From: Pseudomonadota bacterium
GTDB taxonomy: Bacteria; Pseudomonadota; Gammaproteobacteria; Eutrophobiales; Eutrophobiaceae
Direction of reading: 5' to 3'
DNA: 64,000 nt
NCBI GenBank assembly: GCA_038142205.1
Contig: JAYQJO010000001.1
Location: 678,527-742,526, forward strand
Both the position numbers and the translations under genes were made by a program. Position 1 is the stretch's first letter, and every line of letters begins with the position of its first letter. The notes below the pieces were generated by a model. The model searched no databases. It worked only from the letters and a program-made list of their open reading frames with translations, and was not told the DNA's origin. Shown here one piece after another: positions 1-14,694 of the stretch.

Positions 1-2109
1 GCCAAAGACGCAAATAAGGAAGAAAGCAACGACGGAACCACAGGTTTTACATATACCGTTAAGCTCGACAATGCTGCATCAGAGGCTTTCGATGTTAACT
101 GGAAAGTAGGTGATGACAGCAAGACCAACAAAGATGATTTCGCAGCGGACACTGGAAAGTTAAGTTTTGCCAAAGGCGATCAATCAAAAGATCTGGTGGT
201 TCAAGTCAAAGGTGATAAGGCATGGGAGGGTAATGAAGAGTTCACCGTTGCGATTGATGAAACCACACTACCAAAGGGAATTAAGCTGGGCGCCAATTCT
301 ACAGCAAAGGGAACGATCAAAAATGACGATTACCCAACTATTTCAATCGTTGGTCCAGGAGACAGCGTAAATGAAGGAAACAGCGATTCAGAATTAGTTA
401 TTTTTGCTGTTTATGTTCAAGATAATGGAAATGAAATTTCCTCTGATAAGGTGATATCAGCTGTCACGATCGATTGGAAGATATTGTTAGAAAGCGAGAA
501 TGCAACGGATAAAAACGATTTTACCGATGATACAAAGTTATCAGGAACTTATAAGGTTGATAAAGATACAGCTTCATACAATTATCTGGATTTCAAGGTA
601 AAAGGGGATGAGATCTGGGAGTCAGACGAAACAGTTACTATTGAAGTTACGCATTCAATTATCGAATCTGGACAAACCAAAGAGTTAGGGAAAACGCGTA
701 GTTCCGTAACAATAAAAAATGATGACGCGAAAGATTACTGCGCTGACGATCCTTGTAAAAATAACGGTCAATGTAGTAACGATTTAGAAAAGAAAACATT
801 TAGTTGTGCTTGTACCACAGAGTATAAAGGAACGACTTGTGATCAGTTAATAAACAACCCACCTGTCGTTAAAAAGAAGATAGAGGATCAGATAAAAACA
901 GTAGGAGACTGGGTATATTTGCAATTTAATTATACTGATTATTTCAGTGATGCGGATGGTGACGGTCTTGCTCTGGAGATAACAGGTTACCCTGAAAGCT
1001 TGTCTTTTACTTATCCTACTCCCGGCGGTGGCAGCATGATTAGTGGTACGCTGAAAGATAAGGATGTCCGAGAACACACAATCACCGTCACTGCAAAAGA
1101 TGGTAAAGGTGGCAAAGAATCGACAACCTTCAAGCTGACTGTTAAGGCTAAAGATAATTCAAGTATTATAAATGCAACATGTCCTGTAGTGACACCATTC
1201 AGATGTCCGGATAACACATGTAAAGCAACACACTCAGATTGTACTAGAACATCGTCAGCTACCGGCTGTCCTAAAATCACATGTCCTGATGGAAGTTGTG
1301 TTGAATATATAGCAAGTTGCCCTAAAGCTTCGACTAGTACTGCTTCAAGCAAAAAAACAACTGACTTCAAAGTCGTTAATAAAACAGTGTCTGTTTCACA
1401 AACAATCGATGAAAAAGAAGACAGCGACGGTAATAAGTCACTTACCTTTACCATTGAATTGAGTTGCCCAACAGACAAACCGGTTGAATGTTCAGCGAAT
1501 ACCTGTGCGCCAACACAAGCAGAGTGCACGACAACGGGAACGACATGTTCAGGTACGACACCCGTACAATGTGCTGATGGTAGCTGTGCAGTAAATCAGA
1601 CGAGTTGTCCTACAGTAGGGACGACTTGTGCAGCACCGACACCATTCAGATGTCCGGATAACACATGTAAAGCAACACAATCAGATTGTCCTGCTGAGAC
1701 ATCATCAGCATGCGCTACTGGTCAAGTGTTATGCAAAGATGGTTCATGCGCTAGTTCACCAAATCAGTGTCCTACAGTAGGGACGACTTGTGCAGCACCG
1801 ACATCGATTAGATGTCCGGATAACAGATGTAAAGCAACACAAGCAGAGTGCACGACAACGGGAACGACATGTTCAGGTACGACACCCGTACAATGTGCTG
1901 ATGGTAGTTGTGCAGTAAATCAGACGAGTTGTCCTACAGTAGGGACGACTTGTGCAGCACCGACACCACTCAGATGCCCTGATAACACATGTAAAGCAAC
2001 ACAATCAGAGTGTACTAGAACATCGTCAGCTACCGGCTGTCCTGCGACAGCGCCAATTACATGTAATGATGGAAGTTGTAGACCTACTTTAGGCGAGTGT
2101 CCGAGATAA
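1..2109 (+). CDS. Large secreted/surface protein, 3' part only (the gene starts upstream of the window). It has Calx-beta-like motifs, an EGF-like module, and tandem Cys-rich repeats.
   Basis: Frame 1 is open from nucleotide 1; the first ATG in the ORF track is at 196. The motif 'DDxWEGNEEFTVAID...TIKNDD' resembles Calx-beta. 'CADDPCKNNGQCSNDLEKKTFSCACTTEYKGTTCDQ' has EGF-like cysteine spacing. It is followed by repeated 'CPDNTCKATQSDC' and 'CADGSCAVNQTSCPTVGTTCAAPT' units. Repeats 1516-1641 and 1850-1975 are near-identical at the nucleotide level. Confidence 0.7.
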   Translation, partial: AKDANKEESNDGTTGFTYTVKLDNAASEAFDVNWKVGDDSKTNKDDFAADTGKLSFAKGDQSKDLVVQVKGDKAWEGNEEFTVAIDETTLPKGIKLGANSTAKGTIKNDDYPTISIVGPGDSVNEGNSDSELVIFAVYVQDNGNEISSDKVISAVTIDWKILLESENATDKNDFTDDTKLSGTYKVDKDTASYNYLDFKVKGDEIWESDETVTIEVTHSIIESGQTKELGKTRSSVTIKNDDAKDYCADDPCKNNGQCSNDLEKKTFSCACTTEYKGTTCDQLINNPPVVKKKIEDQIKTVGDWVYLQFNYTDYFSDADGDGLALEITGYPESLSFTYPTPGGGSMISGTLKDKDVREHTITVTAKDGKGGKESTTFKLTVKAKDNSSIINATCPVVTPFRCPDNTCKATHSDCTRTSSATGCPKITCPDGSCVEYIASCPKASTSTASSKKTTDFKVVNKTVSVSQTIDEKEDSDGNKSLTFTIELSCPTDKPVECSANTCAPTQAECTTTGTTCSGTTPVQCADGSCAVNQTSCPTVGTTCAAPTPFRCPDNTCKATQSDCPAETSSACATGQVLCKDGSCASSPNQCPTVGTTCAAPTSIRCPDNRCKATQAECTTTGTTCSGTTPVQCADGSCAVNQTSCPTVGTTCAAPTPLRCPDNTCKATQSECTRTSSATGCPATAPITCNDGSCRPTLGECPR

Positions 2110-2137
2110 AAGAATGATGAGAACACTTAACTACATA

Positions 2138-2290
2138 TTTTTCTTTTTTTCTCAGTGTTTGGTATTTTTATATTACCTGTCGTTAGTGCGGACGAAGACT
2201 CTGTGTCCGTTCCTTATTCTATTGATGGCATTAATCAGGATGATGTACTTGAAGATGGTAAGTTAAAAGGTAATGTCGAGTTTAAAAAAA
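2138..2290 (+). other. Homopolymer tracts (T5+T7 at 2138-2150; A7G4 at 2284-2294) that separate a signal-peptide-like N-terminus from the body of the surface-protein gene. They may be phase-variation switches or homopolymer miscalls.
   Basis: Three reading frames each carry one protein-like piece of a single N-terminal region. Switching frame at the T and A runs gives a continuous signal peptide plus mature protein. Confidence 0.45.
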
Positions 2291-4735
2291 GGGGAGAACT
2301 CTAAAACCATTACAATAAAAATAAAAAAGGATGCGAGTAAAAGTGGTGATGACGAACCTAAATTCTCACTTGGCGAAACGGATGATAAGAAAGTAAAACG
2401 CGGTAAAAATAATTCCGTCGCGATTAAACTGCCTGATACTCTGAAGCCTGCTGTCGCGAAAAACACCCCACCGACGGGTGCTGATAAGACAATTCAGGTA
2501 TTAGGAAACGACTCTTATACAAAAGCTTCGGAATATAGTGGCGCTTATTATGAATTTTCAGAAAAAGACTATGGTTTTAGTGATGCAGATGAGGGTGATT
2601 CTCTTTATACAGTTAAAATACTAAGTTTACCTGAGAGAGGGTGGTTATCAGGAGTTTTCTCTAATGGTACTTCAGGAAATCCGAAAGTCGGTGATGTGTT
2701 AGATAGTATTTATCTTGATGCATTGAGGTATTACCCCGTCGATGATGAGAGCGGTACCGTTAGTTTTCAATTTAGTGTCTCTGACAGTAAAGCCTTTTCT
2801 GTGCCCTATACCATGACGTTGAATTTTTCATGTCCTGAAGGTGAAGAATTAAAAGATGGTAAGTGTGTTGCAAAGAATACCCCACCGACGGGTGCTGATA
2901 AGACAATCCAGGTATTAGGAAACGACTCTTATACAAAAGCTTCGGAATATAGTGGCGCTTATTATGAATTTTCAGAAAAAGACTATGGTTTTAGTGATGC
3001 AGATGAGGGTGATTCTCTTTATACAGTTAAAATACTAAGTTTACCTGAGAGAGGGTGGTTATCAGGAGTTTTCTCTAATGGTACTTCAGGAAATCCGAAA
3101 GTCGGTGATGTGTTAGATAGTATTTATCTTGATGCATTGAGGTATTACCCCGTCGATGATGAGAGCGGTACCGTTAGTTTTCAATTTAGTGTCTCTGACA
3201 GTAAAGCCTTTTCTGTGCCCTATACCATGACGTTGGATTTTTCTGCTGTAGAGAAAACGAACACGCCTACTATTCAAGCCAACAGAAATATCATTGCGAA
3301 ACCGAATCCGGTTGAGTCAGGTGGTGTCGTCAGTCTTGATGCCAGAGGTACAGGTGTTTTTTATCAATATACAATTGAACCCGGTGCTCATACTGAAAGA
3401 TGGGAAGGATTTTGTGTTCCCGGCATTGCCGATAGAGCAACAATTGAGGATAACTCAAGCAAAACACCTGGGAATAACTTTAGCAAAAAAGGTCCTGCTC
3501 CATTTAATTTCATAGATGGAAAAATCGTTTTTGAGAATGATACGCTTAAAACCACGTGGACTGCGCCGATCAATACGACGAATGAAGTTATGACGTGTAA
3601 ATTAACGGTTATTGCTTCAAACAACGACGGCAATGCGTTTGCTCAATCTGTATTTGTCACTGTCTTACCTACTAAACAAGTCGCTGATACCAATTTGGTC
3701 GATGACAAACTGACACCCAAACCTAAGAAGGAATTTAAGTTAGTCGAGAACAGCAGGAAATTCTTGTTATATGATTCGCGTTTAATTAATGGCATCAGCT
3801 TAACTCAAGAAACAAGCTTTACTGATGCAGTTAATGCCGCTATTAATTGTCCTGCCAATAAACCGATACTTTGTTCGGATATGACATGTGCGGTATCAGA
3901 CGATGCGTGTACGACAACAACAACTACGACCACAACAGCCGCTGCGCCACCTGAAATCTGCGGTAACCTTGTTGATGATGATGGAGATACTCTTATCGAC
4001 TTTGCCGACCCTGATTGTACTACTGCGGAAAACGCTGGTGCAGGAAACTGTGGTGATTTTTTTGATAATGATAATGATGGCTTAACAGATTTTGCCGACG
4101 CTGGTTGTACTACTGCGGAAAACGCTGGTGCAGGAAACTGTGGTGATTTTTTTGATAATGATAATGATGGCTTAACAGATTTTCTCGACCCTGATTGTGT
4201 TGAAACAATATGTAATGACTTTACTGATAATGACAGTGATGGCGCTATAGATTTTGCTGACCCTGATTGTACTACTGCGGAAAACACTGGCGCAGGAAAT
4301 TGTGCTGACGGATTTGATAATGATAATGATGGCTTAACAGATGGGGCTGACCCAGATTGCGCACCAGCGTCATCGGCATTAACACTGGTTCCGCCTTTAC
4401 TTAACGATACTTCGTTTGCAAATACAATTGTGATTGTCGTCAATGGAGCAAATCTTAGTACGGTAATAGATGCTGACGCAGACTCGGTGGCGAACTCGCT
4501 ATTTCATGTACAGTTTACTGGTCCAGGAAGTGCTCTTGCGGTTCCTGCCACAGGTACCACTGTTGATAACACGAATATGTTGATGGACGGACCAAACATT
4601 GGACTCGGTTTTACAAGAGGCGGTATTACTTATGAAATCAATCTCGGTTTGACCATTACTTTTGACGATGACATTACCACCGATGCCTTGAGCGGTAGAA
4701 ATTGTGGGGCAGGAGGGACAGCACCATGTCCATGA
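2273..4735 (+). CDS. Large repeat-rich surface protein. It contains a 138-aa tandem duplication, a poly-Thr linker, and Cys-bracketed DxDxDG calcium-binding-like repeats. The true start may lie upstream at 2114, reached through two homopolymer frame changes.
   Basis: An 820-aa ORF. Near-identical direct repeats lie at 2459-2832 and 2873-3246. 'TTTTTTTTAAAPP' follows. Then come three 30-aa units, 'CTTAENAGAGNCGDFFDNDNDGLTDFADxxC'. The ATG at 2114 (frame 2) encodes 'MMRTLNYIFFFF'. Frame 1 continues as 'FSVFGIFILPVVSA|DEDSVSVPYSIDG...' after a T5/T7 run at 2138-2150. It rejoins the frame of 2273 at the A7 run at 2284-2290. Confidence 0.65.
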   Translation: MSSLKKGENSKTITIKIKKDASKSGDDEPKFSLGETDDKKVKRGKNNSVAIKLPDTLKPAVAKNTPPTGADKTIQVLGNDSYTKASEYSGAYYEFSEKDYGFSDADEGDSLYTVKILSLPERGWLSGVFSNGTSGNPKVGDVLDSIYLDALRYYPVDDESGTVSFQFSVSDSKAFSVPYTMTLNFSCPEGEELKDGKCVAKNTPPTGADKTIQVLGNDSYTKASEYSGAYYEFSEKDYGFSDADEGDSLYTVKILSLPERGWLSGVFSNGTSGNPKVGDVLDSIYLDALRYYPVDDESGTVSFQFSVSDSKAFSVPYTMTLDFSAVEKTNTPTIQANRNIIAKPNPVESGGVVSLDARGTGVFYQYTIEPGAHTERWEGFCVPGIADRATIEDNSSKTPGNNFSKKGPAPFNFIDGKIVFENDTLKTTWTAPINTTNEVMTCKLTVIASNNDGNAFAQSVFVTVLPTKQVADTNLVDDKLTPKPKKEFKLVENSRKFLLYDSRLINGISLTQETSFTDAVNAAINCPANKPILCSDMTCAVSDDACTTTTTTTTTAAAPPEICGNLVDDDGDTLIDFADPDCTTAENAGAGNCGDFFDNDNDGLTDFADAGCTTAENAGAGNCGDFFDNDNDGLTDFLDPDCVETICNDFTDNDSDGAIDFADPDCTTAENTGAGNCADGFDNDNDGLTDGADPDCAPASSALTLVPPLLNDTSFANTIVIVVNGANLSTVIDADADSVANSLFHVQFTGPGSALAVPATGTTVDNTNMLMDGPNIGLGFTRGGITYEINLGLTITFDDDITTDALSGRNCGAGGTAPCP
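2459..3246 (+). repeat. Tandem direct duplication inside the surface-protein gene. The copies are 2459-2832 and 2873-3246 with a 414-bp period.
   Basis: About 372 bp with only 3 mismatches, encoding a 122-aa module 'AKNTPPTGADKTIQVLGNDSYTK...SVPYTMTL'. Confidence 0.9.
4016..4350 (+). repeat. A 90-bp tandem repeat (two identical copies at 4016-4105 and 4106-4195, and a diverged third at ~4268-4350). It encodes the motif 'CTTAENAGAGNCGDFFDNDNDGLTDFxDxxC'.
   Basis: Read directly from the sequence. Confidence 0.85.
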
Positions 4736-5295
4736 TGAAAATAATTACATTCAAAGCATCAATAGCGGCTCTTCTGCTCATGTTTACTTTAGGCAGTATT
4801 CATACTGATGTTGAAGCGCGTGATTTTCGTTCTATCCGCTATGTCGAGTCACCTAAACTCAAAGACATGATAAACAAAGCCCAATTTAAAGATGGTGGTT
4901 TATCGCCAGAAGCAGAGGGGCTTAATTTAAAACCGATTCCGCAAGAAGCGGTACGGCAAGCCGTGCGTGATTTTTTTGCGGCATGGAACAATGGTCCTGG
5001 TTCGTTGGCTTCACATCTTGATCCGGAGTTTGTGAATGCCGCTCGCTTAATTGATTCAATTAATGATGTTGTACCCAGAGATGCCACCGTACGCGTGCTG
5101 GCGATCAGTTCGATAGTAACGCGACCCGACGAAATAGTTTGGTTATCAGAAGAAGATAAAACTAAGGGTTTTGATAGGAAAACCAAAGTTTCTGTCGTTG
5201 TTACGACGCAACTTGAATTTACTAATACCAATGGATTACAAAAAATTAGGGGTAATAGTGAATATAACTTTAACGTCACTGAGGAATACAGATAA
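4726..5295 (+). CDS. Hypothetical secreted protein (~190 aa).
   Basis: ATGs at 4726, 4732 and 4735 overlap the TGA of the upstream gene. The N-terminal signal peptide is 'MKIITFKASIAALLLMFTLGSIHT'. No recognisable family. Confidence 0.5.
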   Translation: MSMMKIITFKASIAALLLMFTLGSIHTDVEARDFRSIRYVESPKLKDMINKAQFKDGGLSPEAEGLNLKPIPQEAVRQAVRDFFAAWNNGPGSLASHLDPEFVNAARLIDSINDVVPRDATVRVLAISSIVTRPDEIVWLSEEDKTKGFDRKTKVSVVVTTQLEFTNTNGLQKIRGNSEYNFNVTEEYR

Positions 5296-5297
5296 AC

Positions 5298-7502
5298 ATG
5301 GGGCGTAGATTAATTTCATTTAATCGTTTATCTATTTCGAGTGTGATGCTCTTTACGAGCATTAACATGATGTCGTCTGTTATGGCAGAGGATGCTGATG
5401 GCCTGTTATTAGATTGGAGTATTAGTGGCTACAACACATACCGTGTGGATAATTATGAAGACAGCGGCAATATTTCTTCTAGTCCTTATCCTAATCGTGG
5501 CTTTCAACAATTTGACGATTTTAGTATCCAACTCAGTCGTGAAGTCTCTGAGTATGAAAATATCGAAGCACAGATTTCTGGAACGGTTGATGATTCGGAA
5601 TACAGAACGTCTGAAGAAGGTTTGATTTTTGAACGCGGTTACATCAATTGGGAGAAAGGCGATGGGGCGATACCGTTTCGTGCCGAACTCGGCGATTTTT
5701 TTGGTAATCAAAGCTTGCGTACATTGCAACGTTCTTTAAAAGGTGTGCAAATAGATTTACAACCTGATTTCTTGTTTCCAACTCCGCATTCGATACAGTT
5801 GTTTAGTGGTGTGACGAATAGTACCTATCGTAGCTTGAGTGATAATAAAAATTTCTTTACGGGCGGATCTTGGCTTGTACCAGAGAACAAACTCGGTGCG
5901 TTTATATTAACTGCGGTTAATAACACGACGCAATCCACCTTAACGACACCGAGATTAAACCAAACTGTGTACAGCATGGCTTGGGCTAAAGAAGCGTCGT
6001 ATTGGAATCAGAGTATAGAGCTTGAAGCAGAATATGGTTTTCTTTCCGGTGACGTATCCACTACCGAACTCAATAAGCATGACAATGGTTTTTTTACGCA
6101 ATTGAAAGGGAAGAGTGAAAATATTCCACTAACTTATCGGCTTCGACATGAACGCTATGGTGATGATTTCAGACCAAACGGTTCTTCTATCACCTCTAAT
6201 CAACGTGCCTCAGAAATTCATTTAGGCTGGCGTTTTACTACCGGGCTCAGTGCTAGAGCACGATTACAAACTTTCAGAACGAACTGGAGAACATCAAATT
6301 ATACGGATAGAGATGTTGTTGGTTTAACATTTAGTGGGCCTTTAATACCCTCTATTGGGTTAACGGGTAGTTTAGGATCGTTTATATCCGATACTGAAAC
6401 GGCGGATAAAACAACGAGTTCATTTTCGAACGCGACTAATGCCTCATTTTCGATGCCGATTGCTGATCATTGGGTAGCGCGTTTAGGTGGTGTGTTAACG
6501 CAAGTTGATAATCGTGTTGCGGGCACGGCAACAGTTAACCGCCAAATATCGTTAGGGCTGATTCATGATTTTAATTTCCATGGTTTTACCGGTTCTATTT
6601 CACCGAGTTTGAATCTCAGAGACAGTATCAGTGCGGGTAGTACAATCCAATCCGACATTTCACCTTCAGTGTCATTGAATGTACGAAAAGGTTCACACAG
6701 TTTAGCGTTTTCTCATAATGTCCAGATATTGGATACAAAGAGTTTGACGGGAACAGATACAGATACATTTCAATCGGCATTGAATTATTCCTACACGAAA
6801 AACGCGCATCGTATACAAATTGAAGCGAATCATTTTGACCGCAATCCGACACCCGGCAGTGGCACCGATGCGTATCGTATCGGCATAGGCTGGACCTATA
6901 ATTTTGATAGGCCCGCTCGCGTGATACCAAGGCCCGATCAAAAGTCAGCAGCTGAAACACAAGCGCCTGTTGAGGCGGCTCCCATGGCCATTGATGCTCA
7001 GCCGGATATAATAGAATTGATTCCGGGTATGGATATGAAAGTTGTTAAAGCCAGATTGGAACAGTCAGGCATTATCGAACCTCTCGTCAGAGGAGAATTG
7101 GAAATCTATGAAACGCCATTTATTGAGAGTATTGATCATCGTCAACGTTTAGGTTTGATTTCAGAAAATGGCTTTTTAGAAAAATCGGTACTTGTTATCG
7201 ACTTTGATGATCTGGGTGATATAGATAGTGCTTCTCAGATATATGATGAAGTACGTAAAGTCTTATTTGATCGCTATGGTCCGCCAACGACAAATATTGA
7301 AGAAGGCGTTTTTTCAGATAACATAAGAAGCGAATTACGCTCTGGTACTTTTCAACGAATTCTCGAATGGCAAACGACATCCAGTGTATTACGTTTTGGT
7401 ATTCCTGACAGAACCGATGGTCAAGTTAGAATGGAAATCATCCATGCTACACGCTTTTCTTCTGGCGAGGATAATTTCTGGAGTACCGAAGCGCTTAGAT
7501 AG
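5298..7502 (+). CDS. Outer-membrane beta-barrel protein with a ~200-aa C-terminal soluble extension.
   Basis: A signal peptide ('MLFTSINMMSSVMA') is followed by ~500 aa of alternating amphipathic strands, ending in a barrel-terminal 'YRIGIGWTYNF'. A Pro/Ala linker and a globular C-terminal domain follow. Confidence 0.55.
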   Translation: MGRRLISFNRLSISSVMLFTSINMMSSVMAEDADGLLLDWSISGYNTYRVDNYEDSGNISSSPYPNRGFQQFDDFSIQLSREVSEYENIEAQISGTVDDSEYRTSEEGLIFERGYINWEKGDGAIPFRAELGDFFGNQSLRTLQRSLKGVQIDLQPDFLFPTPHSIQLFSGVTNSTYRSLSDNKNFFTGGSWLVPENKLGAFILTAVNNTTQSTLTTPRLNQTVYSMAWAKEASYWNQSIELEAEYGFLSGDVSTTELNKHDNGFFTQLKGKSENIPLTYRLRHERYGDDFRPNGSSITSNQRASEIHLGWRFTTGLSARARLQTFRTNWRTSNYTDRDVVGLTFSGPLIPSIGLTGSLGSFISDTETADKTTSSFSNATNASFSMPIADHWVARLGGVLTQVDNRVAGTATVNRQISLGLIHDFNFHGFTGSISPSLNLRDSISAGSTIQSDISPSVSLNVRKGSHSLAFSHNVQILDTKSLTGTDTDTFQSALNYSYTKNAHRIQIEANHFDRNPTPGSGTDAYRIGIGWTYNFDRPARVIPRPDQKSAAETQAPVEAAPMAIDAQPDIIELIPGMDMKVVKARLEQSGIIEPLVRGELEIYETPFIESIDHRQRLGLISENGFLEKSVLVIDFDDLGDIDSASQIYDEVRKVLFDRYGPPTTNIEEGVFSDNIRSELRSGTFQRILEWQTTSSVLRFGIPDRTDGQVRMEIIHATRFSSGEDNFWSTEALR

Positions 7503-7606
7503 TTATGTTTTTTTTACAGCTGAATAATATTAAAGTGACAGAATTATTATAAGTATTACAATAACCAGCACGATGGAACATTGTTCACTTTAGCTGTCTA
7601 AAAAAT

Positions 7607-7879
7607 ATGGTACAAAAGAACATACTAAACCAAATAATGATTTTATTGATGGTGATTTTGCTATCAATTTCATTTTCAGCTATTTCTGAAGAAGACGAAA
7701 AGCGTAGTGTTAAGCCTATAGACGGTGAATTGGTCTTACCTGACGATTACAATAAAGCAGAAGATAAAAAATGTGTTACGGTCTGTGATCGTTGGGGGGA
7801 AGACTGTATACTCAATCCGAGTACGGGTAGTCGGAAATGTCGGCGAGTATGCAAATCATTTGCTGAACAATGTTTCTAA
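7607..7879 (+). CDS. Small secreted cysteine-rich protein (90 aa, 6 Cys in the mature part).
   Basis: An N-terminal hydrophobic signal peptide; the ORF lies in an intergenic gap upstream of tRNA-Leu. Confidence 0.4.
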   Translation: MVQKNILNQIMILLMVILLSISFSAISEEDEKRSVKPIDGELVLPDDYNKAEDKKCVTVCDRWGEDCILNPSTGSRKCRRVCKSFAEQCF

Positions 7880-8030
7880 AAACGTTATTATCTAGCCCAC
7901 CTGTTATATTCAGATTTACAATACAAACTAGCGACTAATAGAATTAACTTTCTTGTATGGATGTTTGTTGTATGGGATCAGTTTGTGCTTATTAAAAACA
8001 GAGAAACAGGTGTTTCTCGAGCCAAAAAAA

Positions 8031-8115
<85 letters not shown>

Positions 8116-8204
8116 ATTAAGATATCTTTGCTATATTATTATGAAATAATAATGTTTATAGTTAAGGTATTGAATTTATTTAATATTTGAGGTTTATGAG
8201 TAGG

Positions 8205-9521
8205 ATGCAAGTATCAGTAGAAAATACCAGTTCGCTTGGGCGTAAGATTAAAGTTGAACTACCACAAGATGAGATCAGCACGGAAGTGAATAATCGTCTT
8301 CAAAATATGACCAAGACGACAAAGATTCAGGGCTTTCGGCCAGGAAAAGTACCTTTAAAAGTGATTCAAGGCCGTTATGGTGTTCAGGTGCGCAAAGAAG
8401 TCGTCGGAGCAATGGTAGAAAAGAGTCTTTATGAAGCCATCAGCCAAGAAAAGCTTAATATCGCCGGTCTACCAAAAATTGATGAATTGAGTGATGAACT
8501 TGGCAAAGATATAGCCTATACCGCAGTTTTTGAAATTTACCCTGAAGTGACTCTCAAGCCTATGGCCGATGTTAAGGTCGAGAAAATGACTTGTGATGTG
8601 TCTGATGATGATGTTGCGAAAATGATAGAAATGCTCCGTAAGCAACGTCGTGAGTTAAAGCCTGTCGAAAGAGCGGCGAAAGATGGCGATAGCATCAATA
8701 TTGATTTTGAGGGGTTTATTGATGGTGAAGCTTTTGAGGGCGGTAAAGCCGAAGGTTATGACCTTGAGTTAGGAGCTAATAGTTTTATTGAAGGCTTTGA
8801 GGAAGGATTGATAGGAAAGTCAGCTGGAGATGACGTTACTTTGGATTTGAAATTTCCCGATGACTATGGAAATGAAACTTTAAAAGGAAAGCAGACCGAA
8901 TTTAAGGTCAAAGTTAATCTGGTTAACGAGTCTGTCCTGCCTGAAATTAATGAAGCTTTTATGGAGCAGTTTGGCGTTAAAGATGGTAAGGAAGAAACAT
9001 TGACTGCTGAAATCCGTCGTAATATGGAACGTGAAGTTGAGTTGGCGACGCGTCGACAATTGAAGGAAACGGTATTTGAGTCTTTACGTGAAGAAAACGA
9101 GGTTGAATTACCGCAATCGTTGATTGAGAGTGAACAACATCGTATCAAGCATGAAATGGCAGAACGACTAAAACAGCAAGGTATGGATGGCGGCGCGATT
9201 GGCGATGCAGATGTGTCTTTATTTGCTGATGAGGCTAAAAAGCGTGTTTCATTACAATTAATTGTGGGTGAAATCATTAAACAAAATGAATTAAGTCCTG
9301 ATCAGGAAAAAGTACGCCAGATGATCGAACAAGCAGCAGCTGGCTATGACGATCCTAATACTGTAATAAACTGGTATTACTCGGATAAAAAGAACCTGAA
9401 GGAAGTCGAATCGTTGGCTCTCGAAGAGAGTGTGATTGACTGGGTATTAGAGCATGCGACTGTTTCTGACAAGGCATACACGTTTGACGAAATTATGAAT
9501 AAAGGGCAGACTGCTGCCTAA
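8205..9521 (+). CDS. tig: Trigger factor.
   Basis: The N-terminus 'MQVSVENTSSLGRKIKVELP' matches E. coli Tig 'MQVSVETTQGLGRRVTI'. It sits upstream of clpP-clpX-lon. Confidence 0.93.
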   Translation: MQVSVENTSSLGRKIKVELPQDEISTEVNNRLQNMTKTTKIQGFRPGKVPLKVIQGRYGVQVRKEVVGAMVEKSLYEAISQEKLNIAGLPKIDELSDELGKDIAYTAVFEIYPEVTLKPMADVKVEKMTCDVSDDDVAKMIEMLRKQRRELKPVERAAKDGDSINIDFEGFIDGEAFEGGKAEGYDLELGANSFIEGFEEGLIGKSAGDDVTLDLKFPDDYGNETLKGKQTEFKVKVNLVNESVLPEINEAFMEQFGVKDGKEETLTAEIRRNMEREVELATRRQLKETVFESLREENEVELPQSLIESEQHRIKHEMAERLKQQGMDGGAIGDADVSLFADEAKKRVSLQLIVGEIIKQNELSPDQEKVRQMIEQAAAGYDDPNTVINWYYSDKKNLKEVESLALEESVIDWVLEHATVSDKAYTFDEIMNKGQTAA

Positions 9522-9553
9522 AGTTATTACAGATTATACCGATATAAATTGCT

Positions 9554-10207
9554 ATGAATAATATTGAAACTCAAGCACTTAATTTAGTGCCAATGGTCGT
9601 TGAACAGACGTCCAGAGGTGAGCGCTCCTACGATATCTATTCGCGACTTCTTAAAGAACGTATTATTTTCTTGGTTGGCGCGGTTGATGATAATGTTGCT
9701 AATGTCATTGTTGCACAACTACTTTTCTTGGAATCAGAAAACCCTGACAAAGATATCCATTTTTATATTAACTCCCCTGGTGGTGTGGTAACAGCTGGTA
9801 TGGCGATTTATGACACCATGCAGTTTATTAAGCCCCAAGTGAGTACGATGTGTCTTGGTCAAGCAGCTAGTATGGGATCATTACTATTAGCTGGAGGTGA
9901 AAAAGGTAAGCGTTATTGCCTACCTCATTCTCGTGTCATGATTCACCAGCCTTTAGGCGGTTTTCAGGGGCAAGCAACGGATATTGACATACACGCCAAA
10001 GAAATTTTGTTTATTCGTGAACGACTTAACCAAGTCCTAGCTCATCATACAGGACAATCGATTGAAACTATCGAAAAGGATACTGACCGTGATAACTTTA
10101 TGAGCGCGGAAGCAGCAAAAGAATACGGACTGATTGATAGTGTTCTGAATGAAAGATCTGGTTTGCCAGAAGAAGATGTCAATGAGGCGGATAAAGAATC
10201 AGAGTAA
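9554..10207 (+). CDS. clpP: ATP-dependent Clp protease proteolytic subunit.
   Basis: ClpP active-site context '[18 protein letters not shown]' and '[10 protein letters not shown]'; conserved synteny. Confidence 0.95.
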
Positions 10208-10234
10208 TTTATTTAATACTGTCAGGAGTAAATA

Positions 10235-11515
10235 ATGACTGATAATAAAGAGGGTAAAAACGGCGACGGTGATCGCCTACTATATTGTTCCTTCTGTGGT
10301 AAGAGTCAGCATGAAGTTAGAAAGTTGATTGCCGGCCCTTCTGTATTTATCTGTGATGAATGTGTCGAATTATGTAATGACATTATTCGCGAAGAAATTC
10401 AGGAGAAATCTGTTAGCGGTGTTGGTTCTTCATTACCTACACCACACGAAATTAACAAGATTTTGAATGAGTATGTTATCGGTCAGGAAAGGGCAAAGAA
10501 AATTCTTTCTGTTGCTGTATACAATCACTATAAACGTCTTGAGCAAGGTGTTAAAAAGTCAGACGTTGAATTATCGAAAAGCAATGTTCTGCTTATTGGA
10601 CCTACTGGTAGTGGTAAAACCTTGTTGGCCGAAACAATGGCGCGATTACTGAATGTGCCCTTTACCATTGCTGATGCAACGACATTAACCGAAGCAGGGT
10701 ATGTCGGCGAAGATGTTGAAAACATCATCCAGAAACTATTACAGAAATGTGATTACGACGTTGATAAAGCGCAGACTGGTATTGTCTATATTGATGAAAT
10801 TGACAAGATTTCACGCAAATCAGATAACCCGTCAATTACTCGCGATGTTTCCGGTGAAGGTGTTCAACAGGCATTATTAAAGCTGATTGAAGGAACCGTA
10901 GCTTCTGTTCCGCCTCAAGGTGGACGTAAGCACCCGCAACAGGAGTTTCTGCAGGTTAATACCGCTAATATCCTGTTTATCTGTGGTGGTGCTTTTGCGG
11001 GACTTGATAAAATTATCCGTGAACGCTCAGAAAAGGGCGGTATTGGCTTTTCTGCAGAAGTGAAAGGCAAGGAGGATAAGAAGAGCGTCAGCGAAGTTAT
11101 TCATACGGTAGAACCGGAAGATCTAATCAAATACGGTTTAATTCCAGAATTCGTAGGTCGTTTACCTGTCGCGGCAACATTATCTGAACTTGACGAAGAA
11201 CAGCTCTTGCAAATCTTACAAGAACCTAAAAATGCAATTACTAAGCAATATACGCGATTATTTGATATGGAAGGCTGTGAACTTGAGTTTCGTGAAGACT
11301 CCTTACGTGCTGTGGCCAGAAAATCGATGGAGCGTAAAACAGGTGCGCGTGGATTACGTTCAATAATGGAAAATGTGCTATTAGATACAATGTATGATTT
11401 ACCTTCTATGGATAATGTCGCCAAAGTCGTTATTGATGAAGGTGTAATTAATGGTGAATCAGAACCTTTGATGATTTATGAAGGCTCTGATATGTCAAAA
11501 GCTGCATCTGAGTAA
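10235..11515 (+). CDS. clpX: ATP-dependent Clp protease ATP-binding subunit ClpX.
   Basis: A zinc-binding '[30 protein letters not shown]' segment and the Walker A motif 'GPTGSGKT'; conserved synteny. Confidence 0.95.
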
Positions 11516-11573
11516 GGTTTTCTAATTTCCTGCCGAATATTTGCATGATTAGTGCATAACTCTAATCATGCAT

Positions 11574-11601
11574 CTTGAAAAAGAGAAATAAGCCACCATA
11601 T
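11574..11601 (+). promoter_or_regulatory. Putative sigma-32 heat-shock promoter for lon. A perfect 10-bp inverted repeat, GCATGATTAG...CTAATCATGC, lies just upstream at 11543-11571.
   Basis: CTTGAAA at 11574-11580 and CCACCATAT at 11593-11601 match the sigma-32 consensus CTTGAAA-N13-CCCCATNT. lon is a sigma-32 gene in E. coli. Confidence 0.5.
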
Positions 11602-11650
11602 CGTTTTAAGGTATACTTATTTAACTCGTAAAATTTACAAAAGGTTTTTT

Positions 11651-14059
11651 ATGACAAAAGAAACTGAGACACTTCCTGTTCTTCCCCTTCGTGATGTTGT
11701 TGTTTATCCACACATGGTTATTCCCTTGTTTGTCGGACGTGAAAAGTCGATTAAAGCATTGGATAAAGCGATGGAGGGCAGTAAACAAATTTTACTTGTT
11801 GCGCAGAAAAGCGCTGCTGAGGATGAGCCCGGTCAAGATGAAACCTATAATATTGGAACACTTGCCAATATTTTACAGCTATTAAAATTACCAGATGGCA
11901 CGATTAAGGTTTTAGTCGAAGGTACAGCCAGAGCAGGCATAAAAGATTATCGCGATGAAGACGGTATGTTTGTCGCTGATGTTGAATTACTTGAAGGTGT
12001 TGTCGCCGATGAACAGGAAATGGACGTGCATGCGCGTTCAGCAATGAATCAGTTCGAGCAGTATGTAAAATTAAACAAGAAAGTTCCGCCAGAAATTATT
12101 TCCTCGCTTACCAGTATTGATGATGCCAGTCGCTTGGCTGATACGATCGCAGCGCATATGTCGATAAAAATAGAGGAAAAACAACATGTTCTGGAGATTA
12201 TCGATATAAAAGAACGCCTTGAGCATCTCATCCATTTGATGGAATCAGAGATTGATTTGTTGCAGGTCGAAAAACGTATTCGTGGTCGTGTGAAGTCTCA
12301 AATGGAAAAGAGCCAGCGCGAGTATTATTTGAATGAGCAGATGAAAGCGATTCAGAAAGAGTTGGGTGAAATGGATGATGTGCCTAATGAAATTGATGAA
12401 TTAACGGATAAAATTGAAAAAGCAGGTATGCATAAAGAGGCTAGGGAAAAGGCTGATTCAGAATTAAATAAACTGAAAATGATGTCGCCGATGTCTGCGG
12501 AGGCGACGGTAGTTCGTAATTACATAGACTGGCTTGTTGGCGTGCCATGGAAAAAGCGTAGTAAGGTTTCACAAGATATAGCCAAAGCAGAAAACATACT
12601 TGAAGAAGATCATTTTGGATTGGAAAAAGTAAAAGAACGTATTCTCGAATATCTTGCTGTACAACAACGCGTCAAGAAAATGAAAGGTCCTATCTTATGC
12701 CTGGTCGGTCCTCCTGGTGTCGGTAAAACATCGCTTGGCCGTTCTATTGCCAGAGCAACAAACCGTAAATTTATTCGCATGTCTTTGGGTGGCGTTCGTG
12801 ACGAAGCTGAAATTCGAGGTCATAGACGAACTTATATCGGTTCTATGCCCGGAAAAATTGTCCAAGGCATGTCAAAAATCGGTAAGAAAAACCCGCTTTT
12901 CTTGCTTGATGAAATAGACAAGATGGCAATGGATTCACGAGGTGATCCAGCATCGGCTTTACTGGAAGTTTTAGATCCGGAACAAAATAACACGTTTAAC
13001 GACCACTATCTTGAAGTTGATTATGATTTATCCGAAGTCATGTTTGTGACGACGGCGAATAGTTTAAATATTCCTGGACCTTTATTAGATCGTATGGAAA
13101 TTATTCGTATCTCCGGTTATACCGAAGATGAAAAAATTAATATTGCTAAGCGTTATTTGATACCGAAGCAATTTACAAGTAATGGTATAAAAGAAGGTGA
13201 AGTAGTTATTAGAGAAGGTGTTATTCGCGATATTATTCGTTATTACACGCGAGAAGCAGGTGTTCGTAGTCTTGACAGGGAAATTGCGAATATATGCAGA
13301 AAAATAGTGAAGCAAATTTTGCTTAAACCTACTGATAAAACAGTCACAGTCACTGAGAAAAAACTTGAATCTTTATTAGGCGTTAAAAGATTCCGTTATG
13401 GTCGAGCTGAAGAAGAAGATCGTATCGGTCAGGTTACCGGACTTGCCTGGACGGAAGTTGGTGGTGAATTATTGACGATTGAAGCGGCTATGGTTGATGG
13501 TAAAGGAAAAATAACACGTACTGGTAAATTAGGTGAAGTTATGCAGGAGTCAATCGAAGCAGCGATGACTGTTGTCAGAAGCCGTAGTAATATTCTCGGT
13601 ATTGATCATGATTTCTATAAGGAAAATGATTTTCATATTCATGTGCCGGAAGGAGCGACACCAAAAGATGGGCCAAGTGCCGGTGTGGGTATGTGTACAG
13701 CGCTTGTTTCTGCACTTTGTAAAATTCCTGTTAAATCCAGTGTTGCGATGACAGGAGAAATTACCTTACGTGGTGAAGTGTTGCCAATTGGCGGTTTAAA
13801 AGAAAAATTACTTGCTGCGCTAAGAGGAGGAATTGAAACAGTATTAATACCTTACGAGAATGATCGAGAATTATCCGAGATTCCAAAGAACATAAAACAG
13901 AATCTTGATATTCGACCGGTTAAATGGATTGATGAAGTACTTGAGGTGGCATTGGAAAAAATGCCGGAGCCGAGTGCCAAAAGTGGTTCTGAATCTGATA
14001 TAGTCAAAACCGAAGAAGTAATAGGAAAAGAGAAAAACGATTTAATCCGACCACACTAA
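11651..14059 (+). CDS. lon: Lon protease.
   Basis: 802 aa. The Lon N-terminal domain is '[23 protein letters not shown]'. Walker A 'GPPGVGKTS' and the catalytic 'DGPSAG' are present. Confidence 0.95.
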
Positions 14060-14087
14060 ATTATTTGCATCTGTTTGAAACCATTGC

Positions 14088-14116
14088 TTGACGCCTATTT
14101 CAGCTCTTGGTATAAA
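14088..14116 (+). promoter_or_regulatory. Sigma-70 promoter for hupB.
   Basis: TTGACG (14088-14093), a 17-bp spacer, then TATAAA (14111-14116), about 110 bp upstream of the hupB ATG. Confidence 0.55.
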
Positions 14117-14226
14117 ACTAGCGCAAAAAAAAAGTATCCAGGTCAAAAGAACAATACTATCTCACCAGTCAGACACATATCTGTAATAGCTGTAGCTGGG
14201 AATTATATACAAGGGGAATAATTATT

Positions 14227-14499
14227 ATGAATAAAGCTGAACTTATTGATGCTGTAGCCGATTCTGCAGATTTGTCTAAAGCATCTGCAGGACGAGCATT
14301 GGATGCAGCAATAGAAGCAATAACAAAAGCACTTAAAAAAGGTGATACCGTTACATTAGTAGGGTTTGGAACATTTTCAGTTCGTAAGCGTGCAGCGCGT
14401 ACGGGTCGTAACCCAAGAACGGGTGAAGAAATAAAAATCAAAGCGTCAAAAGTTCCTGGCTTTAAAGCTGGCAAAGCTCTCAAGGATGCCATAAACTAG
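14227..14499 (+). CDS. hupB: DNA-binding protein HU-beta.
   Basis: 90 aa. '[11 protein letters not shown]...[26 protein letters not shown]...' closely matches E. coli HupB. Confidence 0.93.
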
Positions 14500-14508
14500 C
14501 GCGCCCTT

Positions 14509-14584
14509 GGGTGCTTAGCTCAGTTGGTAGAGCGTCGCCTTTACACGGCGTAGGTCGGGGGTTCGAATCCCTCAGCACCCACCA
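14509..14584 (+). tRNA. tRNA-Val (anticodon TAC).
   Basis: GGGTGCT...AGCACCC-A-CCA. Anticodon stem CGCC/GGCG with loop TTTACAC. Similar to E. coli tRNA-Val(UAC). Confidence 0.9.
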
Positions 14585-14617
14585 TGTTAAAAATTTAATA
14601 AGAGTAGAACACACTTA

Positions 14618-14694
14618 GGAGTGGTAGTTCAGTTGGTTAGAATACCGGCCTGTCACGCCGGGGGTCGCGGGTTCGAGTCCCGTCCACTCCGCCA
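14618..14694 (+). tRNA. tRNA-Asp (anticodon GTC).
   Basis: Near-identical to E. coli tRNA-Asp: GGAGTGGTAGTTCAGTTGGTTAGAATACC...CTGTCACG...GGGTTCGAGTCCCGTCCACTCCGCCA. Confidence 0.92.

Follow-up and report, generated by a model that had tools for sequence, protein, structure and literature searches.

A secreted mosaic protein of a marine gammaproteobacterium that combines Calx-beta, EGF and four-cysteine repeat modules

Calx-beta and cadherin-like arrays are common in bacterial biofilm adhesins of the LapA type. These and other modular calcium-dependent adhesins or 'eukaryotic-like proteins' of marine and sponge-associated bacteria share with the protein described here a secreted build of Calx-beta, cadherin-like Ig and EGF domains, repeat expansion and domain shuffling. 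Giant adhesins of the RTX type, which leave the cell through type I secretion systems (T1SS), lack a Sec signal, carry C-terminal GGxGxD nonapeptide repeats and are usually longer than 2,000 aa. In the metazoan matrix, the FRAS1/FREM family likewise sets Calx-beta domains beside small disulfide-rich modules within adhesive proteins of the extracellular space, a likeness that we draw from background knowledge. The sponge aggregation factor is reported to use Calx-beta arrays (PMC11670116). A literature search for the peptide strings of the repeat unit reported below, or for EGF and Calx-beta domains in marine bacteria, returned nothing specific.

The gene and its full-length product

We analysed a DNA stretch of 64,000 nt (the window), with a GC content of 39%, from an uncultured marine gammaproteobacterium. 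Rfam models detected three tRNAs only in the window, which elsewhere encodes a Sel1-repeat protein, Opp ABC transport and Na+ symporters. Its first 2,109 nt (1-2109, + strand) form an ORF of 702 codons in frame 1 that is open at the 5′ edge from base 1, as the first-pass annotation had recognized, and ends with TAA at 2107-2109; all peptides quoted in that annotation occur in the translation. The upstream sequence that it had called for was obtained from contig L086, which is 99.95% identical to window positions 1-14669 and supplies the whole gene. The full protein (P0084/P0083) has 1,404 aa; the window encodes its C-terminal half with an identical translation, and the N-terminal half is encoded upstream.

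The 1,404-aa protein begins with a classical N-terminal Sec signal peptide and contains 66 cysteines, an even number. About five of its domains are beta domains of the Calx-beta type and two are cadherin-like Ig domains (He_PIG); there are also three EGF domains, of which one sits inside a PKD/REJ-like domain. The protein ends in an array of ten 27-aa units with four cysteines each. Neither RTX repeats (GG.G.D) nor an LPXTG motif nor a transmembrane segment other than the signal peptide was found in it. The previous description as a 'giant' surface protein thus does not suit a product that is large but has only 1,404 aa, a Sec signal peptide and no RTX repeats.

The codon composition of the gene is that of its surroundings: GC3 is 0.31, on a par with clpX, lon and tig (0.31-0.36), and cysteine and threonine codons are used as in housekeeping genes. 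There is therefore no sign of recent import, and any transfer would be old. Several of the records that contain these genes have names in the style of seawater surveys, and one is a Tara Oceans sample.

Calx-beta, EGF and four-cysteine modules

The part of the protein encoded in the window starts with a Calx-beta domain, a calcium-binding Ig-like fold (1-327, + strand). PF03160, with a Pfam gathering threshold of 27 bits, scored 32.4 bits on the fragment (aa 17-109, model positions 25-118 of 119) and 40.6 bits on the full protein (aa 697-811, model positions 6-118). The domain claimed by the first-pass annotation is therefore present; the motif quoted for it is not, the sequence being GDKAWEGNEEFTVAID rather than DD..EGNEEF. 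The acidic motif that is found (EGNEEF, ...NDD) is a candidate Ca2+ site. A second, divergent beta domain (KGDEIWESDETVTIEV ... VTIKNDD; 337-729, + strand) scored below the Pfam threshold; judged by eye, its motif pattern is like that of the first domain, and it is probably Calx-beta-like.

Downstream lies an EGF domain of the hEGF/Notch type with six cysteines (739-840, + strand; CADDPCKNNGQCSNDLEKKTFSCACTTEYKGTTC). PF00008 (threshold 21.5 bits) scored 31.5 bits on the isolated module, 21.7 on the fragment and 34.4 on the full protein. Its spacing, C-x4-C-x5-C-x10-C-x-C-x8-C with Y-K-G before Cys6, falls within the EGF pattern C-x(3-7)-C-x(3-7)-C-x(6-12)-C-x-C-x(6-10)-C with a Gly/aromatic pair before the last cysteine, and the closest sequence matches in the PDB are a Notch1 EGF (E 5e-6) and EGF1 of factors VII and IX. 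The EGF-like module proposed earlier is thus a genuine one, and the concern that cysteine spacing and domain models might fit neither EGF nor Calx-beta is allayed, since both domains exceed curated Pfam thresholds. Bona fide EGF domains are now on record in a planktonic gammaproteobacterium. The EGF domain is followed by a dystroglycan-type cadherin-like Ig domain, He_PIG (862-1143, + strand; aa 288-381). PF05345 (threshold 24 bits) scored it at 27.2 bits when run on the fragment and at 31.1 bits on the full protein; this domain was absent from the earlier annotation.

Most cysteines of the fragment (40 of 46) fall in ten units of invariant spacing, C-x(4-7)-C-x4-C-x6-C (summarised as C-x7-C-x4-C-x6-C), with a period of 27 aa, a regularity far beyond chance. 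Units 1 and 2 (CPVVTPFRCPDNTCKATHSDC, CPKITCPDGSCVEYIASC) occupy 1180-1320 (+ strand; aa 394-440), and units 3-10, with Thr/Pro/Ala-rich linkers, occupy 1465-2100 (+ strand; aa 489-700); Tandem Repeats Finder (TRF) reported a period of 162 nt, i.e. two units. All ten fit the pattern of the wider family, a tandem C-x(4-8)-C-x-[DN]-[GN]-x-C-x6-C usually followed by Pro. The two groups are separated by a Ser/Thr-rich linker (1321-1464, + strand) with a mini-module, KVVNKTVSVSQ...LTFTIELS, that is conserved in relatives and lacks a Pfam match; in P0001, P0003, P0004 and the upstream 701-aa gene it always lies 5′ of a Cys unit. The tandem array of at least eight units announced previously is thus real, but every unit has four cysteines instead of four to six.

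Part of the array has been duplicated. A 126-bp segment at 1516-1641 recurs at 1840-1965 (both + strand) with one mismatch, and forms the core of a 324-nt duplication of four units. The duplication as such had been noticed before, with the partner placed at 1850-1975; that segment differs from 1516-1641 at 101 of 126 positions. The single mismatch (window position 1908) is a synonymous strain SNP, and the two copies agree there in L086.

A cystine-knot module needs at least six cysteines and a knotted three-disulfide core, and TIL domains have ten cysteines in about 55 aa. The assignment of the units as Cys-knot-like or TIL has to be abandoned: each has four cysteines, and TIL, knot or other Pfam models gave no match at E ≤ 10. 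Against Pfam plus NCBIfam at that cut-off the Cys region returned no family, VWC alone appearing at E 1.2, which is noise. An AF2 model of four units (53-row alignment of in-register unit windows) showed one small hairpin per unit at low confidence (pLDDT 62, pTM 0.27), and a Foldseek search of this model against the PDB gave nothing significant (best E 0.13).

A profile-to-PDB search pointed to the LDL-receptor class A module (LDLa): all 24 matches were LDLa-repeat proteins (VLDLR at 3.2e-5), covering Cys1-Cys4 only and with high composition bias. The C-x7-C-x4-C-x6-C unit and its F/I-x-C-x-D-G-x-C hairpin align with Cys1-Cys4 of LDLa, and the units weakly resemble the first half of such modules. 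In contrast to LDLa, with about 40 aa and six cysteines, the unit has 27 aa and four; the acidic calcium cage (D-C-x-D-x-S-D-E) is missing, as neither D.SDE nor C.D..[SD]DE occurs anywhere in the protein, and PF00057 does not match the units at E ≤ 10.

Relatives of the unit were sought with a profile of the four-Cys unit (~25-27 aa) against representative proteins. It found 1,201 of them, 215 at E ≤ 1e-30; the best matches are proteins of 1,300-5,500 aa that carry a median of 26 units and reach scores of up to 836 bits. Of the 135 top matches longer than 800 aa, 92 show a hydrophobic stretch close to the C-terminus. Five top matches carry an organism or transcriptome label: Rhodelphis marinus (EukProt), the ciliate Pseudomicrothorax dubius, Mantamonas plastica and two EukProt transcriptome assemblies. 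The best matches of the family are giant proteins, those with a label being of protist origin. A word-indexed search placed the unit in few bacterial-looking proteins. The 'eukaryote-like' module combination seen in the first-pass annotation is borne out by the Calx-beta and EGF models together with the protist matches, which make the Cys-rich tail more eukaryote-like than had been supposed. With more than 1,000 representatives and no Pfam or NCBIfam counterpart, the four-Cys family could become a model at once.

A variable island with a conserved outer-membrane barrel

Four mosaic genes of one orientation lie in an operon-like island between cysS and tig, and the gene for the 1,404-aa protein is the third. 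A gap of 39 nt separates the first two (614 aa and 701 aa), and from the 701-aa gene through the barrel gene described below the gaps are −4 to 6 nt, with 4 nt between the 1,404-aa gene and its successor. That successor (2114-4735, + strand; 873 aa in L086) is interrupted in the window by two homopolymer indels, at positions 2143 (T7 versus T8) and 2283 (A7 versus A6). Its product has a signal peptide, a 138-aa domain in duplicate, a single four-Cys unit and acidic double-disulfide repeats, followed by a conserved C-terminal domain ending in NCG.....CP. The last mosaic gene of each island always encodes this same C-terminal domain, which the 1,404-aa protein lacks.

Two conserved genes follow. 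The first (4732-5295, + strand) encodes a 187-aa secreted protein of no known family, which lies beside the barrel also in L085, L091, L092 and L093 and gave us the impression of being NTF2/SnoaL-like. The second (5298-7502, + strand) encodes a 734-aa outer-membrane protein, 68% identical in L091, with a signal peptide, a predicted 26-strand beta-barrel (aa 41-538), a linker and an alpha/beta C-terminal domain (AF2 pLDDT 80.5). Large outer-membrane barrels include MtrB and LptD with 26 strands and the FimD/PapC ushers with 24. A Foldseek search of the 734-aa model matched the FimD/PapC ushers at E 5e-9; by TM-score MtrB came first, at 0.42. In contrast to these four proteins it has an extra C-terminal alpha/beta domain and no sequence family match, and it is paired with the soluble 187-aa protein instead of a chaperone, a cytochrome or an LptE homologue. 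The 187-aa partner, the barrel C-terminal domain, a 90-aa protein and the C-terminal domain of the 873-aa protein had no Pfam or PDB sequence match.

An island between cysS and tig with different mosaic genes was also found in L085, L091 and L093. Among these relatives the domain content of the mosaic genes is reshuffled at 18-28% identity, and the barrel and small partner stay conserved. Relative to the organism of L093, for example, ClpX is 92.5%, Lon 88.5%, the barrel 63% and the mosaic proteins 18-22% identical. In L092, a remote relative at 36% identity, barrel and small protein adjoin Cys-poor, unrelated proteins. Searching 80 ClpX loci of GTDB species representatives by tblastn detected neither barrel, partner nor mosaic halves, the 90-aa gene alone being conserved there; the island thus either belongs to a narrow clade or is lacking on these short contigs. 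Exact protein look-ups retrieved ClpX, the 734-aa protein and P0083, and not the 820-aa ORF of the window, the trigger factor with a TTG start or P0084. The island is small, well delimited and hypervariable, and its large conserved barrel is a candidate export or anchoring device.

Proposed function and comparison with known systems

We consider it reasonably probable that the 1,404-aa protein is a Sec-exported, heavily disulfide-bonded modular extracellular protein, most likely an adhesin; calcium-dependent adhesion is what we infer as its function. Once exported and oxidatively folded in the periplasm, it would reach the cell surface or the medium and there serve as a calcium-stiffened adhesin or matrix component. 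Ligand binding would fall to the Calx-beta, Ig and EGF modules, and the Cys-unit array with its Thr/Pro-rich linkers could form a stalk or a further binding array; eukaryotic cell surfaces or particles would be likely targets. Going by gene order, the barrel pair may be linked to the mosaic proteins, which it may export or anchor, the best candidate cargo being what the final gene of each island encodes. Both the shuffling of domains and the recent duplication of four units point to rapid diversification, a usual trait of surface-exposed binding proteins.

Several other explanations were weighed. One possible, though not probable, account is that a symbiont or pathogen uses the protein to interact with its host, the EGF and Cys-repeat modules having been acquired horizontally from a eukaryotic host and imitating the host's surface proteins. 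The EGF matches to Notch and factor VII fit it, as do the TSP1 and TNFR Cys-rich domains in island relatives (P0003), a Cys unit abundant in protist surface proteins and found in few bacterial-looking ones, and the Sel1-repeat protein encoded in the window. Against it stand the native GC3 and codon usage, by which any transfer must be old, the seawater-survey names of the records and the ordinary free-living heterotroph functions (Opp transport, Na+ symporters) in the rest of the window.

We rate as improbable a self-directed structural role, in which the protein would form a matrix, sheath, S-layer-like coat or cell-cell aggregation factor not aimed at eukaryotes. In its favour, several mosaic genes share an operon with an outer-membrane barrel, Calx-beta arrays are at home in biofilm adhesins, and a LapA model gave a hit of 25.4 bits, under its cut-off of 27. 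Against it, coats are usually conserved, whereas content here is reshuffled among close relatives, and the modules and Cys unit are typical of eukaryotic receptors.

An RTX-type giant adhesin would share the Calx-beta/LapA-like and cadherin-like repeats; 1,404 aa, a classical signal peptide, no GGxGxD, 66 cysteines and no T1SS genes adjoining the gene contradict this idea and make it very improbable. Eukaryotic contamination or a chimeric assembly, suggested by the eukaryotic look of the module set and Cys unit, has next to no probability and is contradicted by the data: the gene is unbroken and joined to tig-clpP-clpX-lon not only in the window but also in an ENA scaffold of 381,930 bp and in an NCBI record (exact protein look-up), it has a bacterial signal peptide, a 4-nt gap to the next gene and native GC3, and related islands occur in three further assemblies.

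The Sec-exported modular adhesin thus remains our preferred reading. A bolder extension, which we hold to be rather unlikely, takes the cysS-tig island as an undescribed display or secretion module, in which the 26-strand barrel and its small partner serve fast-evolving, disulfide-rich, eukaryote-type mosaic adhesins. The four-Cys repeat would then be a widespread extracellular fold, new and overlooked by domain databases, that protists and this bacterial clade have exchanged and that serves attachment to protist hosts or mimicry of their receptors. Bacterial secreted proteins made of animal- or protist-type modules are candidate means of attachment to eukaryotes in the ocean, in partnerships that are hard to observe; were both the link to the barrel and the eukaryotic target to prove wrong, an ordinary modular adhesin would remain.

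Among known proteins, the giant protist type I membrane proteins share the repeat family (consensus CP..P..C.DGSC......CP): P0085 and P0129, which we read as being of this type, and P0087 from Rhodelphis marinus. They have filamin/GEX2-type Ig domains, then 20-48 units, are anchored in the membrane, extend a coiled-coil tail into the cytoplasm and lack Calx-beta. In contrast, the bacterial protein has ten units of slightly longer period and no anchor. With the FRAS1/FREM family, homology is limited to the shared domains, whose order and partner domains differ. Compared with the modular adhesins of marine and sponge-associated bacteria and those of the LapA type, the 1,404-aa protein stands apart in its Sec signal in place of T1SS/RTX export, its 66 cysteines, a repeat without a Pfam or NCBIfam model, and its location in an island between cysS and tig that has its own dedicated 26-strand barrel and small partner.

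A secreted mosaic protein of 1,404 residues

On the plus strand, frame 1 is open from base 1 to a TAA at 2107-2109 (702 codons); overlapping minus-strand ORFs (e.g. 1011-1529) were unsupported and were taken as shadow ORFs. Exact matches to the window's ClpX and 734-aa ORF located a 381,930-bp ENA scaffold that is 99.95% identical to window 1-14669 (five substitutions, two single-base indels), and this supplied the upstream sequence called for by the first-pass annotation: the complete gene is 4,215 nt long and encodes 1,404 aa. An exact look-up placed a near-identical 1,404-aa protein (P0084) in an NCBI record. Its C-terminal half equals the window translation, so that the window covers precisely the second half of the sequence. 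The N-terminus is a typical signal peptide (MNNFINKLLFIASWLFVVAAPVVHA/QDE), and 66 cysteines are present. Scanning the protein revealed no hydrophobic segment beyond the signal peptide, no RTX nonapeptides and no LPXTG. The protein is large, not 'giant' as initially described, and we rejected a giant-adhesin reading on the basis of its length, its signal peptide and the lack of RTX nonapeptides.

Three Pfam domains in the window-encoded fragment scored above their curated cut-offs, i.e. Calx-beta at aa 17-109 (32.4 bits, cut-off 27), EGF at aa 247-277 (21.7 bits, cut-off 21.5) and He_PIG, a dystroglycan-type cadherin-like Ig domain, at aa 288-381 (27.2 bits, cut-off 24). Scanned alone, the EGF module reached 31.5 bits; its cysteine spacing is 4, 5, 10, 1, 8, and among solved structures the nearest in sequence are the EGF repeats of Notch1 (E 5e-6) and EGF1 of factor VII/IX. 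Both domain assignments of the first-pass annotation therefore stand, while the DD motif it quoted for Calx-beta was in error.

Scans of the protein in segments gave the full-length architecture. The signal peptide is followed by a Calx-like N-terminal domain, a He_PIG domain, an EGF-like half module containing four Cys, a pair of divergent Calx-beta/LapA-like domains, and an EGF that begins with the calcium-binding-type motif N-I-D-D-C (36.3 bits). Next come a PKD/REJ-like domain, inside which a further EGF is nested (18-22 bits with the various EGF models), a Calx-beta domain (40.6 bits), a divergent Calx-like domain, the last EGF and a second He_PIG. The C-terminal tail then comprises two four-Cys units, a linker with a mini-module, and eight further units. 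The mini-module, K(V/I)V.K.VS(V/I)S....(E/D)..(N/D)..(L/I)TFT(V/I).LSCP...P.ECSA.TC (window 1321-1470), has no Pfam match and looks like two Calx-type beta strands joined to a Cys unit; it recurs twice at L094 7889-9994 and in the relatives' mosaic proteins P0001, P0003 and P0004, being 64% identical to P0004 across the stretch.

A four-cysteine repeat without a Pfam or NCBIfam model

The 40 cysteines outside the EGF module are fully regular and form ten units, two at aa 394-440 and eight at aa 489-700 of the fragment. Every unit has four cysteines, rather than the four to six first reported; nine of the ten follow C-x(6-7)-C-x4-C-x6-C, and unit 2 has x4 in the first gap. With linkers of 6-8 residues the period is 27 aa, and TRF called a 162-nt array period, equal to two units. 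The array is Thr/Ser/Pro-rich (T 19%, C 13%, S 10%). The 126-bp repeat with one mismatch does exist, with one copy at 1516-1641 as annotated, but the other lies at 1840-1965, not at 1850-1975; the repeat forms the core of a duplication that spans four units (324 nt) and is 88% identical over 232 nt.

The earlier suggestion of cystine knots or TIL domains was discarded, as each unit has only four cysteines and no Pfam or NCBIfam model matched the units even at E ≤ 10. A word-indexed search with the tail yielded 23 proteins built of the same unit (consensus CP..P..C.DGSC......CP, period 24-27 aa), none of which carried a precomputed Pfam domain. Profile A1, made from 53 four-unit windows, was then searched against PDB sequences and 1.84 billion representative proteins. 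In the PDB it matched only LDL-receptor class A (LDLa) repeat proteins (VLDLR 3.2e-5, LRP2 2e-3, and others), with the four cysteines aligned on Cys1-4 of LDLa and a high composition bias. The calcium cage of LDLa is missing from the units of the window protein; judged by sequence, the unit resembles half an LDLa module without being a member of that family. An AF2 model of four units (pLDDT 62) placed a small hairpin around C-x-D-G-x-C in each unit, with floppy linkers, and Foldseek found no significant match to it.

Among the representative proteins, A1 matched 1,201 at E ≤ 1e-3, of which 215 reached E ≤ 1e-30. For the 145 best new matches the medians are 2,105 aa and 26 units; of the 135 among them that exceed 800 aa, 92 carry a strongly hydrophobic segment within the last 450 residues. 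Only five of the 20 top matches looked up were labelled with an organism or a transcriptome, and these five, from EukProt, are all eukaryotic: Rhodelphis marinus, the ciliate Pseudomicrothorax dubius, Mantamonas plastica and two transcriptome assemblies. The contig of one match also looks eukaryotic (sparse gene calls, a NECAP-type domain). Two giant matches examined at full length, P0085 and P0129, read as type I membrane proteins, each with the unit in dozens of copies, a membrane anchor and a tail of coiled-coil type; P0085 adds N-terminal filamin/GEX2-type Ig domains, and no Pfam domain was found in P0129. The A1 search and the labelled matches therefore assign the tail to a large repeat family without a Pfam or NCBIfam model, which is protist wherever labelled. 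The module set is thus eukaryote-like, as first proposed, and to a greater degree than that proposal held; the initial observation holds in substance, apart from four small errors.

The cysS-tig island

In the same organism, cysS and an oppositely oriented 240-aa gene are followed by six co-directional genes (614, 701, 1404, 873, 187 and 734 aa) with gaps of 39, 6, 4, -4 and 2 nt, and then by a 90-aa gene, a tRNA and tig-clpP-clpX-lon. The 701-aa protein combines Big_9 domains of cadherin-like type with teneurin-type EGFs and a REJ-like domain. The 614-aa and 701-aa calls (L094 6005-9994) are only 39 nt apart, and neither shows an obvious signal peptide where it is called to start; they may be one frameshift-split gene or have mis-called starts. 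The 873-aa protein comprises a signal peptide, a duplicated 138-aa domain, one four-Cys unit, acidic double-disulfide repeats and the C-terminus NCG.....CP. Its duplicated domain corresponds to a 414-bp tandem duplication at window 2465-3243 (1.9 copies, 99% matches), a further very recent duplication in this operon; 90-bp tandem repeats at 4001-4198 and 4216-4342 encode the acidic repeats FADPDCTTAENAGAGNCGDFFDNDNDGLTD (NF033662, 89.9 bits). Two single-base homopolymer differences separate the window from contig L086 (99.95% identical): the window reads T7 rather than T8 (~2143) and A7 rather than A6 (~2283), both in the signal-peptide end of this gene (2114-2290); read from ATG 2114 the window copy stops at ~2263, and an ORF picks up again at 2273. 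These indels reflect either assembly or sequencing error or on/off slippage in a surface-protein gene.

The last two genes form a pair. The 187-aa protein has a signal peptide, and no family was detected for it. The 734-aa family is small, comprising 24 clusters, none with a meaningful name; the two labelled ones (an unclassified bacterium and a Chromatiales MAG) come from metagenome-assembled genomes. In the AF2 prediction (pLDDT 80.5), aa 41-538 form a 26-strand barrel, which a disordered linker joins to an alpha/beta C-terminal domain, and Foldseek returned outer-membrane barrels (ushers, E 5e-9; top TM-score 0.42, 26-strand MtrB). The 90-aa secreted protein (window 7607-7879; six Cys, no known family), conserved directly upstream of tig, is kept in nine related genomes without a barrel/mosaic match, at least five of them with the full 10 kb upstream of clpX, and therefore does not belong to the island proper. 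Elsewhere the window carries functions that are ordinary for a heterotroph, among them an oligopeptide ABC transporter, Na+ symporters and an MMPL protein. A 616-aa protein (39286-41136, minus strand) has seven Sel1 repeats (232 bits), which are often counted among 'eukaryotic-like' protein repeats; an 877-aa ORF (60442-63078, minus strand) had no Pfam match at E ≤ 1e-5.

The island also occurs in three further assemblies. It lies between cysS and tig in L091 and in L093 (Tara Oceans); L085 starts at cysS and ends short of tig. Each has two or three mosaic genes, then a pair of 176-178 aa and 735-747 aa. The mosaic genes draw on a common parts list in differing orders and numbers, P0003 adding TSP1 and TNFR Cys-rich domains. 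Identity to the L093 organism is 92.5% for ClpX, 88.5% for Lon, 68% for Tig, 63% for the barrel and 18-22% for the mosaic proteins. The last mosaic gene before the pair always has a common, unannotated C-terminal domain (...KEFKLVE.SRKFLL.DSRL...NCG.....CP-stop; window 3900-4735, L085 13241-19786, L091 13411-17874, L093 4966-9465), which the 1,404-aa protein lacks and which may serve the barrel as a signal for sorting or anchoring. A more distant relative, L092, whose barrel shares 36% identity, retains the pair next to unrelated Cys-poor proteins, so that a functional link between pair and mosaic genes is no more than plausible. None of 80 ClpX loci from GTDB species representatives showed barrel/mosaic genes upstream of tig.

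Origin and proposed mode of action

Contamination or chimerism is excluded, because independent assemblies place the gene on one contiguous stretch with tig-clpPX-lon, and its features are those of a bacterial gene. The host is an uncultured gammaproteobacterium (ClpX ≤ 92% identical to GTDB representatives; NCBI labels Thiotrichaceae or Pseudomonadota). GC3 is 0.31 for the gene and 0.26 for its Cys region, compared with 0.31-0.36 for housekeeping genes, and Cys codon choice agrees with the latter; neither measure reveals a compositional trace of recent import.

The Sec signal, the even and very high cysteine count, the extracellular-type domains, the operon context, rapid reshuffling and very recent internal duplication together suggest a mode of action. 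Sec would export the protein, and after oxidation in the periplasm it would be released or displayed; calcium would stiffen the Calx-beta and EGF modules, and the Cys-unit array would serve as a stalk or multivalent binding array. The protein would probably act as an adhesin or matrix protein, and, judging by the modules it is built from, its putative targets are eukaryotic surfaces or particles. Attachment to a specific host may apply as a narrower reading; that the modules were acquired by a symbiont or pathogen for host interaction, as first proposed, is unproven. From gene order and barrel size only, the pair may export or anchor the island proteins. Collectively, the protein is classed with the known bacterial secreted mosaic 'eukaryotic-like' adhesins, as a variant that adds two testable leads, an unmodelled repeat family and the island's barrel pair.
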